Source of the DNA: a virus
IMG/VR virus record: IMGVR_UViG_3300037086_000474
Span: 1-64,000 of that record
Reading direction: 5' to 3' (one strand)
DNA: 64,000 nucleotides
A model generated the notes under the pieces. It did no database searches. It had not been told where the DNA came from and saw only the letters and a program-made list of their open reading frames with translations. Position numbers and translations under genes: made by a program. Each line of letters begins with the position of its first letter. Within the stretch, counting starts at the first letter, position 1. Shown here in pieces: positions 10,021-44,426 of this stretch.

Positions 10021-10572
10021 ATGAAGATGAAGATCCTCGAGAACGGCAAGATGAAGAAGGGTGTGTCTCCAGACTACAACTTCTTGTTCGACAAAACCAA
10101 TGGCAGATTCGCTCGCTGGGGCAGAGAACTCAATGATGATCCATCTTGGTCCCCAGCAGGTCCGGAGATACTTGACCTTGAACTGAGTTCAGGTGGATGT
10201 GCCGGAAAATGTCCTTGGTGTTATAAGTCAAATCCCGAACGACTTATCCATAACCTCACCTTCGATGAGTTCAAGATCATCTTCCACAAAATGCCACCCA
10301 TTCTCACTCAGATCGCTTTTGGAATCACCGACATTTCCACCAATCCAGATTTTTTCAATATTATGGAATACGCTCGAGAGCATGGAGTGATTCCAAACTA
10401 CACTACCCATGGTATTGGTGTGGATGAGGAAATTGCAAACGAAACAGTAAGAATATGCGGAGCGATTGCAGTTTCAGTGTATGAGCACACGAAGGAACAG
10501 GCCTACGAGGCCATCCAGAAATACAGAAAAGCCGTCCTACAAAGCAAGGTCTATGTAAAAATAAAGAAATAA
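10021..10572 (+). CDS. radical SAM protein, N-terminal half of a split gene
   Basis: PEILDLELSSGGCAGKCPWC (CxxxCxxC), QIAFG, IPNYTTHG, GAIAVS; stops mid-barrel. Confidence 0.85.
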   Translation: MKMKILENGKMKKGVSPDYNFLFDKTNGRFARWGRELNDDPSWSPAGPEILDLELSSGGCAGKCPWCYKSNPERLIHNLTFDEFKIIFHKMPPILTQIAFGITDISTNPDFFNIMEYAREHGVIPNYTTHGIGVDEEIANETVRICGAIAVSVYEHTKEQAYEAIQKYRKAVLQSKVYVKIKK

Positions 10573-10574
10573 AT

Positions 10575-11402
10575 ATGAACTATATCCACGTGTATCAAAA
10601 CATATGTTTAGAAGCTAAAGGTAGGACCAAAACAATAGGTTTGGAAAAACATCATATTCTTCCAAAATCAATATACAGTCCTTTGGCAGCCCAAGTTCTA
10701 ACTAAAAATCAGTTTTTTGGGTTGAATTCAAAGGAGAACATTGTATTTCTAAATTTGAGAGAACATCTCTTTTGTCATCGATTGCTTGTTCGTATATTTT
10801 GTGGATTAGATGAAAATTGTTATCAGAGAATGATCTACGCATTTCATCAAATGAAAAGTCGAACTCCAAACAGTCACGTCTATGAAAGAGAAAGATCAGA
10901 ATATGCGAAAACATTATCAGTTTCTATGAGAGGAAAACCAAGTAGAGCAAAAGGAACTAAATGGACTGAAGAACATAGGAAGAGAAAGCATCATCTAAAA
11001 GATCGAACCTATGAAGACATATATGGTGAGGGAGCTCTTTTTCAAAAGAAGACGCGCTCAGAGGCTCATATTGGTATGAAGCCTTCTTTTGAAACTAAAC
11101 AGAAGATGCATTTATCAAAACTCAATCAGTCTGCTGATACGAGAAAGAAAATATCGATTAGTCACACTGGTATGAAAACTCGATTGGAAACTAAGGAAAA
11201 ACTCAGAAATATCTTTTCAGGACCTAATAGTCCAAATGCCGATAAGACAAAACATTTGTTTCTACATGAAGACGGTAGAGAGGAGCTAGCAACAAAAGCT
11301 GAAATGAAACAGAAATACGGAATTGTTGTATATCCTCTAGTGAATGGCAAACGAAATGTGATCAAAGGCTGGTCATTGAAGGAGAAAAGCTGTGGAAAAT
11401 GA
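10575..11402 (+). CDS. HNH/NUMOD3 free-standing homing endonuclease (T4 Mob-like) inside the split radical SAM gene
   Basis: EKHHILPKS...ENIVFLNLREHLFCHRLL, then H(I/T)GMKx(S/R)xETK repeats; more AT-rich than its flanks. Confidence 0.8.
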   Translation: MNYIHVYQNICLEAKGRTKTIGLEKHHILPKSIYSPLAAQVLTKNQFFGLNSKENIVFLNLREHLFCHRLLVRIFCGLDENCYQRMIYAFHQMKSRTPNSHVYERERSEYAKTLSVSMRGKPSRAKGTKWTEEHRKRKHHLKDRTYEDIYGEGALFQKKTRSEAHIGMKPSFETKQKMHLSKLNQSADTRKKISISHTGMKTRLETKEKLRNIFSGPNSPNADKTKHLFLHEDGREELATKAEMKQKYGIVVYPLVNGKRNVIKGWSLKEKSCGK

Positions 11403-12102
11403 AAAGATGATCGCAATCCCCAAAAAGCACATGCATGAGGACACTTCAGAATATGAAGAGATAACAGTGGCTGAGTTCTATAAACGGTATGGAGAACAGG
11501 CTGGGGAACAGCTAACTCAGGAGATTCTTGCCGTCAATATCCACTACATGTTGTCGCAGGAAACACTCAATGATGCGTTCAATGTTGTGCAAGACATTGT
11601 CCACGATGAGAGGCTGAAGGGTCTCAATGCCGTTGTATTCCTCCAATACAAAGATAAAGGTCGAGGCAAGGGAGAGTTCCATTCCATCCAGGACGCATGG
11701 GACTATAGACGCCTCATCGATTTCTGTGAGATGAGGAAGGTCGGATACGGTTTCGATAGCTGCTCCGCCCCTCTCTACTTCAAGGCAGTTGAAGAGCGCG
11801 AAAACTACAAACAGCTCGTCCAGTTTGCTGAGCCTTGCGAGAGCTCACTCTTTTCGAGCTACATCAACTGCTACGGTGAGTTCTATCCCTGTTCATTCAC
11901 TGAAGCTTCTGAAGGATGGAACACCGGTATTAGTGTTCTGAAGTGTGACAACTTTCTCAAGGATGTGTGGAATAATGAGAGAGTGGTGACATTCAGAAAC
12001 TCTCTCGTTGGCAGCTCTTCAAAGTGCATCAACTGCAAGTCTCAAAAGATTTGTAGGTCTTGTCCAGTCTACGATGTTTCTGCTTGCAAAGAGAAGGAGT
12101 AA
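11392..12102 (+). CDS. radical SAM protein, C-terminal half with SPASM-type Cys motif
   Basis: GTG start with SD AAGGAG; VNIHYML, NAVVFLQYK, GFDSC, PCESSLFSSYINCYGEFYPCSF...CINCKSQKICRSC. Confidence 0.85.
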   Translation: MENEKMIAIPKKHMHEDTSEYEEITVAEFYKRYGEQAGEQLTQEILAVNIHYMLSQETLNDAFNVVQDIVHDERLKGLNAVVFLQYKDKGRGKGEFHSIQDAWDYRRLIDFCEMRKVGYGFDSCSAPLYFKAVEERENYKQLVQFAEPCESSLFSSYINCYGEFYPCSFTEASEGWNTGISVLKCDNFLKDVWNNERVVTFRNSLVGSSSKCINCKSQKICRSCPVYDVSACKEKE

Positions 12103-42268: not shown

Positions 42269-42298
42269 TTTTAGAGCAAATGGACAATAAGTTAGAAT
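42269..42298 (+). promoter_or_regulatory. class A promoter for the CCA enzyme N-half
   Basis: TTTTAGAG-N16-TAGAAT; in-frame ATG 42305 lies 6 nt downstream. Confidence 0.65.
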
Positions 42299-42304
42299 AT
42301 GATC

Positions 42305-43057
42305 ATGTTGGAAACCTCTAAAAAGGTGATTGAGACTCTTCGCAAAGCAGGATTTGAAGCCCTGGTCGCTGGTGGAGCGGTCCGGGACATGGTCATGGGT
42401 CTCCAGCCAAAAGATGTAGACATCGCCTCAGATGCCAGTGTGGAAGATATCAAGAAACTCTTCAAAACCATTCCTGTTGGAGAGAGTTTTGGAGTTTGTA
42501 TCGTTCTGGTAGATGGGCATTCCTTCGAAATTGCGCGTTTCCGCGCGGACGGTGAGTATCTGGATGGAAGACGCCCTTCATCCGTGGAGTTTAGCTCGAT
42601 GGAGGAGGATGCGAAAAGGCGCGATCTCACCGTGAATGGTCTTTTCTGGGATCCCACTTCCGACAAGGTGATCGACTTCGTGGGTGGAATGGAAGACATC
42701 AAGGCGGGAAGAATCCGCTTCATTGGCAATGCTCAGTCTCGTATCGACGAGGATCGGCTGAGGATGCTGAGGGCGGTTCGCTTTGCGCTGAAACTGGGGT
42801 TCAAATTCGATCAGAAGGATTTCGAGGTGGTGAAGAGCAACGCGCATCGTATCCACGACATTTCTGCCGAGAGGATCCGCGAGGAGCTGAACAAGATGCT
42901 GCGCATTGGAAAACCTCGTCAGATGCTGGAGATGCTGCGAGACACTGGTCTCCTGAAGGAGATTCTGCCTGAAGTCATGAAGATGATCGACTGTGGTCAG
43001 AATCCCAAGTGGCATCCGGAGGGAGCCCGGGTCCAGAAAATCATTTACATAGATTGA
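42305..43057 (+). CDS. cca: CCA-adding tRNA nucleotidyltransferase, N-terminal half (class II NTase + RNA-binding domain)
   Basis: AGGAVRD, KDVDIA, EIARFR, EDAKRRDLTVNG, EDRLRMLRAVRF, SAERIREEL, QNPKWHPEG. Confidence 0.9.
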   Translation: MLETSKKVIETLRKAGFEALVAGGAVRDMVMGLQPKDVDIASDASVEDIKKLFKTIPVGESFGVCIVLVDGHSFEIARFRADGEYLDGRRPSSVEFSSMEEDAKRRDLTVNGLFWDPTSDKVIDFVGGMEDIKAGRIRFIGNAQSRIDEDRLRMLRAVRFALKLGFKFDQKDFEVVKSNAHRIHDISAERIREELNKMLRIGKPRQMLEMLRDTGLLKEILPEVMKMIDCGQNPKWHPEGARVQKIIYID

Positions 43058-43063
43058 AAGTAG

Positions 43064-43088
43064 AAACCCCTCGAAAGAGGGGTTTTTT
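43064..43088 (+). terminator. intrinsic terminator after the CCA N-half
   Basis: AAACCCCTC-GAAA-GAGGGGTTT-TTT. Confidence 0.85.
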
Positions 43089-43183
43089 GTTTCTTTAATA
43101 AAAGTTATATTTCCGTTTTTCATCATCCATGTCCCTGTTCTAAGATAATACTGAATGCATTCATTTCTATAGGAGGACACAAC

Positions 43184-43564
43184 ATGTCTAGATCTCGTCA
43201 CAGTAGAGAGTTTCAACTCGTTCGCAGTGTTCAAGCAGAAATCATCGTGCTCAAGCAGCAAGTTCTTGATCTGCAGGACAGAGTGGCAGCATTGGATGGT
43301 GCACCAGCACCAACTCCAATCATTCCACCCGTAGTAGATCCAGTAACTCAACCACCTGTTGATCCAGATGTTCATCAGGATCCACCACCACCCGTTGTTC
43401 CTATTACTCCAGTTCCAGAACCAGCACCAACTCCTGATCCGACACCAGTTCCAGCTCCTGATGCTCCTGCCCCTGCGCAAGCTCCAGATCAGCCAGCACC
43501 TGCACCAGCAGTTGATCCAAATGCTCCTGTCCCTCCATCAACTGCAGCTCGCAGAATGAACTAG
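43184..43564 (+). CDS. coiled-coil + Pro-rich protein between the CCA halves
   Basis: TAAGATAA at 43141, SD AGGAGG, heptad IIVLKQQVLDLQDRVAALD, P/D/A-rich tail. Confidence 0.7.
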   Translation: MSRSRHSREFQLVRSVQAEIIVLKQQVLDLQDRVAALDGAPAPTPIIPPVVDPVTQPPVDPDVHQDPPPPVVPITPVPEPAPTPDPTPVPAPDAPAPAQAPDQPAPAPAVDPNAPVPPSTAARRMN

Positions 43565-43587
43565 AAACTAGAGATCACAAGCATAAT

Positions 43588-43611
43588 ATGGGGCCGAAAG
43601 GCCCCATTTTT
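43588..43611 (+). terminator. intrinsic terminator whose T-tract overlaps the next promoter
   Basis: ATGGGGCC-GAAA-GGCCCCAT-TTTT. Confidence 0.8.
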
Positions 43612-43637
43612 AGAGCCCATAGCATATATGATAAGAT
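43608..43637 (+). promoter_or_regulatory. class A promoter for the CCA enzyme C-half
   Basis: TTTTAGAG-N16-TAAGAT; in-frame ATG 43644 lies 6 nt downstream. Confidence 0.65.
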
Positions 43638-43643
43638 ATGTTC

Positions 43644-44354
43644 ATGAATGACGAACTGCTGATCAATGGACGCAAAGCAATCCTTGGACCCGTGGAGCCC
43701 TACGATCAGCACAACCCTGATCACAATGACCCTACCAAATATGTCCTCACTCCTGGAGATGTGTGGGAGCACACCATCCGTGTCATGGAGGGGATGGTTG
43801 AGCTGGGCAAGAAGGATGACGATGTGATGATGTGGTCCGTTCTGCTGCACGATGTTGGAAAGCCCGTTGTTTCCACTATTGAGAACGGTGTCATCAGGTC
43901 GAAGGGGCACTCTAAAGCTGGTGCGGAGATCACTGAGGATATTCTGACCAGGCTGAAGTTCTCCAATGACTTCATTGAGTCTGTTCGTGAGATTGTGTAT
44001 GCTCACATGATCCCCTTTGATGTTGATAGGATGAAGAAGTCCACTCTGAGGAAGTTCCTGGCGAGGAAGGACATCGAAGGCCTGATCAACATTGGAATGG
44101 CGGATTGTATGGGAACTGAGGGAAACTCCGAGTTCATTCTGGAGTGGAAGGGTTTCATTGACAAGAAGAGGGAGGAATTCAAGGCTCAGGAACTGCTGCC
44201 CAGGCCCTTCATCACCGGTCGGGATCTGATCGAGCTGGGAATGAGTCCTGGACCCACCTTCAAGAAAATTCTGGGAGAGGTCTTCGACAAGCAGCTGGAA
44301 GGAGAGCTGATCAGCAAAGAGGATGCGATCCATTACGTGAAGAGTAATTATTAG
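43644..44354 (+). CDS. CCA-adding enzyme C-terminal half (HD domain + tail)
   Basis: GDVWEHT, LLHDVGKP, GHSKAGA, HM, ADC, ITGRDLIELGMSPGP. Confidence 0.9.
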   Translation: MNDELLINGRKAILGPVEPYDQHNPDHNDPTKYVLTPGDVWEHTIRVMEGMVELGKKDDDVMMWSVLLHDVGKPVVSTIENGVIRSKGHSKAGAEITEDILTRLKFSNDFIESVREIVYAHMIPFDVDRMKKSTLRKFLARKDIEGLINIGMADCMGTEGNSEFILEWKGFIDKKREEFKAQELLPRPFITGRDLIELGMSPGPTFKKILGEVFDKQLEGELISKEDAIHYVKSNY

Positions 44355-44397
44355 AAAAAGCGCAGTGGATTGAAATTGTACCGCATTATTGAAAACC

Positions 44398-44426
44398 AAG
44401 GCCGCTGAAAAGCGGCCTTCTCTTTT
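44398..44426 (+). terminator. intrinsic terminator
   Basis: AAGGCCGCT-GAAA-AGCGGCCTT-CTCTTTT. Confidence 0.75.

Follow-up and report, generated by a model that had tools for sequence, protein, structure and literature searches.

A phage CCA-adding enzyme gene in two pieces, with a conserved and apparently mobile pair of added peptides at the break

To our knowledge, the NrdA protein of Aeromonas phage Aeh1 is the only studied case of assembly tails on a gene that was broken by a nuclease. In this phage the ribonucleotide reductase gene is found as nrdA-a, mobE and nrdA-b, and the two enzyme pieces carry assembly tails (Crona et al. 2011, PMC3045599). These tails are essential for activity but are not needed for formation of the heterodimer, and the authors expected that other such tails, being too idiosyncratic, would escape detection by sequence similarity (PMC3045599). 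The literature already contains the concept that a gene broken by a mobile nuclease may carry assembly tails (PMC3045599), and Aeh1 NrdA is the closest precedent for the locus described here, a gene for a CCA-adding enzyme at positions 42269-44426 of a 64,000-nucleotide (nt) stretch (the window) of the virus record IMGVR_UViG_3300037086_000474. The parent record is a 112-kb virus contig with an estimated completeness of 54%, so that the phage is probably of jumbo size. As in Aeh1 NrdA, the gene of a conserved enzyme is divided into two open reading frames (ORFs), here at a site that in relatives takes up free-standing homing endonuclease genes, and the products carry new C- and N-terminal tails to which nothing in the unbroken protein corresponds. 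In both systems the tail of the upstream product is weakly basic and that of the downstream product acidic (charges of +1 and -3 here), and neither RNA nor protein splicing is apparent. Whereas Aeh1 represents a single locus with unique tails, the tail pair of the CCA gene is found in at least 25 genes and at two different sites; the gap usually encloses a mobile nuclease gene, and these nucleases belong to at least three families, but it may also lack one. Moreover, this pair, which we call the module, is polymorphic among close relatives and also occurs in continuous form, and the role of the tails is, in contrast to Aeh1, a putative one. What appears to be new is a tail pair that constitutes a conserved, CCA-gene-specific, two-site module tied to mobile elements and present in continuous form as well.

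The N-half gene (42299-43057, plus strand, 252 amino acids (aa)) encodes the Pol-beta head domain and the neck of a class II CCA-adding enzyme, extended by a tail, with Pfam matches to PF01743 (4.6e-34) and PF12627 (6e-19); its second ATG, at 42305, is an alternative start and the one chosen by the gene caller. The C-half gene (43638-44354, plus strand, 238 aa) encodes an added N-terminal peptide (the C-head), the HD phosphohydrolase domain or body (PF01966, 2.5e-12) and the C-terminal tRNA-binding tail domain (PF13735). Together, the two genes hold the Pol-beta head, PF12627 neck, HD and PF13735 domains that define a class II CCA enzyme of the HD type. Both halves matched intact enzymes at a probability of 100 in hhalign and abutted exactly at the break between H-P-E-G and D-V, a site at which an intact phage relative (L001, 49% identical) reads H-P-E-G-D-V-W without interruption. 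In the window, 10 residues stand between H-P-E-G and the stop codon of the N-half, and 40 additional residues precede D-V-W-E-H-T in the C-half. The two ORFs are in different frames and 580 nt apart, with one gene inside, and do not form a continuous polypeptide. ORFs, Pfam domains and hhalign comparison bear out the split that a preliminary description of this DNA had claimed at HPEG/DVWEHT; of the extra residues it counted, the 10 on the N-half stand and the approximately 38 on the C-half become 40.

An interrupted coding sequence with an unrelated ORF inside could also represent a decaying pseudogene broken by an insertion. We consider this very improbable, as both halves are full-length open frames in which all the catalytic and metal-binding residues are present. 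The catalytic columns of the Pol-beta head domain (G-G-x-V-R-D, D-x-D and R-R-D) were invariant in 13 N-halves, as were the H...HD...D residues of the HD domain in the C-halves, and the Pol-beta head domain is encoded by a single copy in the genome. Furthermore, the same split is maintained in relatives of only 40-55% identity, and the nearest relative (P0040/P0002, on a 732-kb contig) keeps both halves with 78% and 90% identity. In the GenBank phage collection, the locus had no match among the DNA records, the homologues found by protein comparison were distant and intact only, and no record of a cultured phage showed the module.

Each half is accompanied by putative expression signals. A promoter-like motif, TTAGAGC-N15-TAGAAT (42271..42298, plus strand), abuts the start codons of the N-half, and a second copy, TTAGAGC-N15-TAAGAT (43610..43637, plus strand), abuts those of the C-half. 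The motif TTAGAGC-N15-TA(G/A)(A/G)AT occurs three times in the window compared to an expectation of 0.3, and two of these three copies precede the CCA halves, directly against ATG-NNN-ATG; the third (TTAGAGC-N15-TAAGAT, 1730-1757) lies just upstream of a 572-aa ORF that starts at 1785. Ahead of both halves the -10-like hexamer abuts the ATG-NNN-ATG (42293-42307 and 43632-43646), and since a transcript start around 7 nt past this hexamer would fall on the second ATG, leaderless mRNAs are suggested. Terminator-like hairpins with a T run were found 3' of the N-half (43062..43087, plus strand, with an 11-pair stem) and 3' of the C-half (44398..44419, plus strand). This arrangement fits separate and similarly regulated transcription of the two halves, possibly with leaderless starts. 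Thus, the proposal that each half has its own promoter and terminator holds for the terminator-like hairpins after both and for the shared rare motif before both, while the "class A" identity of the promoters is that of a candidate only. From the sequence, we conclude that the CCA-adding enzyme gene is truly broken into two genes, which are apparently expressed separately.

It is conceivable that a single polypeptide is nevertheless restored by splicing, by bypassing or by some new self-ligation chemistry of the added peptides, as the Gly codons on both sides of the insert are GGA and the invariant Asn, His and Asp of the C-head can be imagined as catalytic. The observations make this extremely improbable. 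The whole window gave no Rfam match to group I or group II introns at the gathering score, with only chance-level hits (E up to 10) in 42900-43900. Inteins require Cys or Ser at position 1, His-Asn at their end and Cys, Ser or Thr at +1. The peptides at the CCA break start with Ala or Ser, end with Pro-Gly or x-Gly and are followed mostly by Asp (Ala, Pro-Gly and Asp, respectively, in the window), and no Pfam intein model matched; moreover, their 10 and 40 residues, 50 in total, are far below the approximately 130 or more of a Hint fold. A likeness of the C-head to C-inteins of the DnaE type, which we had taken as a lead, was supported by no test. With respect to a translational bypass of the T4 gene 60 type, the codon after the Gly is a sense codon and the gap in the coding sequence spans 733 nt, with a gene and two hairpins in it. 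The flanking Gly codons differ in L006 and L011, the frames of the halves differ between loci, the gaps vary between 40 nt and 1.7 kb, and the residues that would be skipped are under selection at the protein level, which also argues against read-through. Finally, each of the C-halves begins with a separate start codon that is served by a ribosome-binding site of its own. The earlier arguments against cis-splicing and ribosome hopping, and against an intein on the basis of the junction residues, are confirmed in this way, and the intervening element is apparently excised at neither the RNA nor the protein level; no signature of an intron, an intein or a bypass was found.

Two other described systems resemble this arrangement. 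In fractured genes, a split intein, a free-standing endonuclease and a second split intein part follow each other, so that the enzyme N-part plus a peptide, a nuclease gene with its control elements, and a peptide plus the C-part are encoded in this order, mainly in phage metagenomes and with a homing-like distribution (Dassa et al. 2009, PMC2677866). The CCA genes share these traits, but their peptides have around 35-50 residues, compared to approximately 130 or more for an intein, and lack splice-junction residues and any match to an intein model; consequently, no trans-splicing is expected. In the T4 topoisomerase genes 39/60, split by mobA, an enzyme is likewise broken beside a mobile nuclease gene and the products carry tail-like extensions. 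The CCA locus does not have the T4 gene 60 arrangement, in which the take-off and landing codons match on either side of a 50-nt coding gap and a stop codon follows the take-off, and its tails are translated and conserved.

The first half of the module is the N-tail (43025..43054, plus strand), 10 codons that follow H-P-E-G, with a core V-[RQ]-K-I-[IL] that is conserved in at least 16 N-halves. The second half is the C-head (43638..43757, plus strand), 40 codons with the core L-G-P-x4-D-x2-N-P-[DE]-H-x-D-x2-K-Y and then five residues ending in Gly. When searches were carried out with the halves, around 12 related N-halves of roughly 250 aa were detected, in all of which H-x-E-G leads into a terminal [AS]-x-[VI]-[RQK]-K-I-... 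stretch that closes with the stop codon, together with related C-halves of 220-240 aa that begin with (K)-L-G-P-x4-D-x2-N-P-[DE]-H-x-D-x2-K-Y-x5 and continue with D-V. In several cases (L006, L008, L011, L012 and L093) both members of the pair were located on one large viral contig. A comparison of the tails with other split phage genes had been suggested beforehand; run with a profile of the C-head, it revealed that the peptides recur in the above-mentioned metagenomic phage CCA genes. The 20-residue core of the C-head shows a mean pairwise identity of 65% against 31% for the rest of the C-half, and it was the higher of the two in all the 105 pairs formed by 15 C-halves. Its invariant residues are encoded by two to four synonymous codons in 12 loci, which points to selection acting on the peptide. 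Tail and head are, by these measures, translated and conserved peptides and not junk or a one-off scar, in agreement with the preliminary description.

The peptides also look specific to this enzyme. A search with the C-head profile against 1.84 billion representative proteins matched only pieces of CCA enzymes and two repeat proteins, and the matches in DNA corresponded to CCA genes in 9 of 9 viral and 11 of 11 metagenome cases, which demonstrates, within these collections, that the module is specific to the CCA genes of phages. A word-based search limited to the C-head returned near-identical proteins only, and no match to the added peptides was obtained in Pfam at E 10 or among PDB sequences at E 10. 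Neither the tail alone nor the head alone matched any part of intact enzymes in hhalign, and the idea that the C-head is a diverged duplicate of the I-L-P-E-V...H-P-E-G segment was rejected after this comparison. The two repeat proteins, P0161 (1979 aa) and P0174 (208 aa), have no assigned family and are composed of tandem repeats of approximately 36 residues that resemble the continuous form of the CCA module, with a basic stretch, V-T-V-L-K-G-T-G-I-I-Y-D-x-N-N-P-E-H-Q-G-K etc., and a strand-turn-strand-Y-D-x-N-N-P-E-H unit. Their fold may be ancestral to that of the module.

Between the halves there is a slot whose content varies. In the window it holds a 126-aa ORF (43184..43564, plus strand) with a good Shine-Dalgarno sequence, whose product has a helix-like N-terminus and, after it, low-complexity sequence rich in proline; a GC-rich hairpin, not assigned to a strand, lies 3' of it (43588..43607). 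This ORF had no match in Pfam or PHROGs, no second copy in the genome and no relatives in our searches, and the ESM Atlas offered nothing usable for it or for P0174. By contrast with this ORF without family match, free-standing homing endonuclease genes of the GIY-YIG, DUF7487/TnsA-like and HNH-like types occupy the gap in relatives. At the H-P-E-G/D-V site, L008 contains an HNH/NUMOD3-like ORF and a second ORF, L093 a DUF7487/TnsA-like PD-(D/E)XK ORF and L104 a nuclease-like ORF that is similar to that of L008 by eye only, while L006, L011 and L012 have no gene in the gap.

A second break site was detected with a profile of the C-head only. It lies in the Pol-beta head domain, between F-R-x-D-x-Y and G-R-R-P, in genes that are intact at H-P-E-G-G-V (L090-L092, L095, L099-L103 and L105). 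There, the upstream piece ends with ...V-R-K-I-[IL]-E-(K) and a stop codon, and the downstream piece begins with M-K-L-G-P-x-E-P-Y-D-P-x-N-P-D-H..., so that the same module is found in a different context. The gap carries a GIY-YIG gene (1.9e-13) in L091, a zinc-finger ORF in L095, and an IS200 TnpA plus an IS605 TnpB that disrupt the same GIY-YIG gene in L090 and L092. This nesting of mobile elements, with an IS200-type TnpA and an IS605 OrfB/TnpB inside the GIY-YIG gene of the gap, is seen in L090 (1948-3419), L092 and L101. Another protein, P0170, is a middle piece with the C-head at its N-terminus and the N-tail at its C-terminus, which implies that the enzyme of that phage is broken into three pieces, both breaks bearing the module. 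The sequences hence show the module to be portable and to occupy two different loops of the enzyme. Insertions seem to hit the head-domain loop repeatedly. In the viral contig L017 (2908-5603), a CCA gene is cut at the same loop, A-T-F | D-G-R-R-P, by a reverse-strand 346-aa ORF that resembles by eye the DUF7487-like cargo of L093; no Rfam intron was found in L017, and its tails are quite different and Cys-rich.

A few unbroken ORFs (P0163, P0164 and P0171, the latter being the 979-aa ORF of L106) contain tail and head as one continuous insert of approximately 35 or more residues. The ORF of L106 (3086-6022) encodes a CCA-type enzyme that carries, in addition to this insert, a C-terminal extension of around 450 residues to which no function was assigned. 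Tails present as an ordinary insertion in intact genes of relatives had been named beforehand as an argument against an assembly role, and these ORFs provide it in part. It could be proposed from them that a lineage of phage CCA enzymes carries the module of approximately 35 residues as an ordinary functional insert, for instance an extra hairpin contacting tRNA or a partner, that nuclease genes land in its permissive turn, the tails then being the two parts of this insert and no adaptation to reassembly, and that its patchiness derives from recombination among phage CCA genes. The invariant polar residues (D, N, H, K and Y) would agree with this, since they resemble a structured motif more than a simple zipper, and so would the similar 36-residue repeat in the unrelated P0161 and P0174. 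Nevertheless we find it unlikely. A lineage-specific insert would not be expected in two different loops, most close homologues lack the module and split forms far outnumber continuous ones, and the module is less diverged than the gene that hosts it.

The distribution of the module was analyzed on a tree of the module-free N-part from 86 sequences (IQ-TREE, short search). The module state changes at least nine times on this tree, at least seven of these changes being forced by branches with a Shimodaira-Hasegawa-like approximate likelihood ratio test (SH-aLRT) support of 95 or more, and forcing the carriers into one clade costs 522 log-likelihood units (approximately unbiased (AU) test, p 2.3e-55). 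Split and intact alleles coexist at 89% protein identity (P0045 vs P0059, and P0058 vs P0063), and the split L008 and the intact L013 group as sisters. Gain and precise loss alike would require recombination with an allele of the other state. Patchiness on the tree, nuclease cargo and a module that has diverged little are what a homing element would be expected to show as it passes through invasion, cargo decay and loss. In this sense the module appears to behave as a mobile element, with a presence/absence polymorphism among close relatives like that of homing inteins and introns. As in inteins and group I introns with homing endonucleases, a conserved site of a conserved gene is occupied, the occupation is patchy on the host-gene tree, and the element often loses its nuclease or exchanges it for other cargo and has diverged less than the host. 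Unlike these, the CCA element is spliced out at no level, and the protein stays in pieces or keeps the insert.

From these data we propose, with a probability of roughly 55%, that an HD-type CCA-adding enzyme, which repairs tRNA 3' ends, is produced from the locus as two subunits, that its gene was interrupted at the surface linker between neck and HD domain by an unspliced mobile element, and that tail and head assist its assembly. The element would consist of three parts. A short coding end would provide the upstream half with a strand-like tail and a stop codon; a cargo slot would follow, filled here by the proline-rich ORF and in relatives by GIY-YIG, HNH-like or PD-(D/E)XK-like nucleases, IS200/IS605 or nothing; and a coding start would provide the downstream half with a conserved head of 27-40 residues. 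Nuclease-driven recombination between co-infecting phages would spread the element. The two polypeptides, each expressed from a promoter-like signal and a start codon of its own, would re-form the normal neck/HD interface, and the tail strand might aid this assembly by pairing with strands of the C-head as a small beta-meander in trans. Such a clasp role is plausible but putative.

The structural support for a pairing of tail and head is weak. In an AlphaFold2 read-through model of L006, whose halves are naturally in frame, the predicted template modelling score (pTM) was 0.80 and the domains had predicted local distance difference test (pLDDT) values above 90; the break falls in the linker between two well-folded domains, and all the interface elements are retained. 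The continuous form of P0163 showed a weak and short beta-bridge from the base of the tail to the end of the head. N-halves were excluded from the second alignment because MAFFT placed their N-tails on the G-D-V-x-x-H-T helix.

Several points weigh against the two-subunit proposal. The tails have pLDDT values of 27-55 in the L006 model, in which this region is disordered, and of 55-79 in that of P0163, so that AlphaFold2 gave no confident form of the split-domain clasp that had been put forward. Binding of the halves to each other and a need for the tails are putative, and the fact that the Aeh1 tails are dispensable for the heterodimer indicates that "clasp" may be too simple a term for those of the CCA enzyme. 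The continuous module in unbroken genes suggests that it may have a function of its own, the split being secondary, and the presence of an identical module at the two junctions of the three-piece enzyme argues against pairing specificity of the tails. Finally, the cargo ORF of the window matches no nuclease family, which makes this copy not demonstrably mobile at present, and the N-part tree does not distinguish gains from losses.

A different possibility is that the halves act independently: the N-half would be a minimal nucleotidyltransferase, the C-half an HD 2',3'-cyclic phosphodiesterase/phosphatase in its own right, and the tails would be tolerated scars. The location of the break at a domain boundary and the separate promoter-like motifs and terminators would be in line with it. 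However, the tails are the most conserved portion of the C-half, and the two halves are always retained together and adjacent. In addition, class II enzymes need the body and tail domains to hold the tRNA, and the second-site break goes through the catalytic head domain, so that those pieces cannot work alone. In favour of independent action of the C-half, statements in PMC6961547 attribute phosphohydrolase activities of its own to the HD domain of the E. coli enzyme (Yakunin 2004, cited therein), and describe that the HD domain clears 2',3'-cyclic phosphate from damaged tRNA ends. Considering both sides, we judge independent action to be rather improbable. A division of CCA synthesis between two polypeptides is not in itself exceptional, as Aquifex and some other bacteria have separate CC-adding and A-adding enzymes. 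These are also class II polypeptides, but there two complete paralogues with divided specificity are involved, and here two halves of one enzyme.

Beyond the two-subunit enzyme, one may tentatively regard tail and head as the peptide part of a new kind of mobile intervening element, a never-splicing functional analogue of a split intein that, by means of a self-associating mini-fold in two parts that keeps the pieces together, would let homing nucleases invade an enzyme gene without killing it. We hold this broader view to be possible, at less than even odds. If true, the pair would be able to move from site to site and might serve as a natural split-protein tag of very small size, and a family of such pairs would make gene breaking without splicing a heritable and transferable strategy instead of a lucky accident. 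In any case, the module constitutes a defined sequence family, with approximately 10 plus 27 residues of core, for the study of tail function. The 3' ends of tRNAs are a target of anti-phage defences, so keeping the repair enzyme working despite the invasion by selfish DNA likely matters to the phage.

The window contains another gene in pieces, of the radical SAM/SPASM type, with an N-half at 10021-10572 (183 aa), a C-half at 11392-12102 (236 aa) and, with almost no spacing, an HNH(AHH)/NUMOD3-like ORF between them (10575-11402, 275 aa). A clasp common to this gene (10021-12102) and the CCA gene had been proposed from a shared HxDx(S/T)xY motif. A hidden Markov model (HMM) of the CCA C-head built from 25 sequences found only the CCA C-head in the window and did not match the radical SAM head even at E 100, and the common clasp was rejected. 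By its sequence, the split radical SAM gene is a parallel gene in pieces with a peptide pair other than the CCA module.

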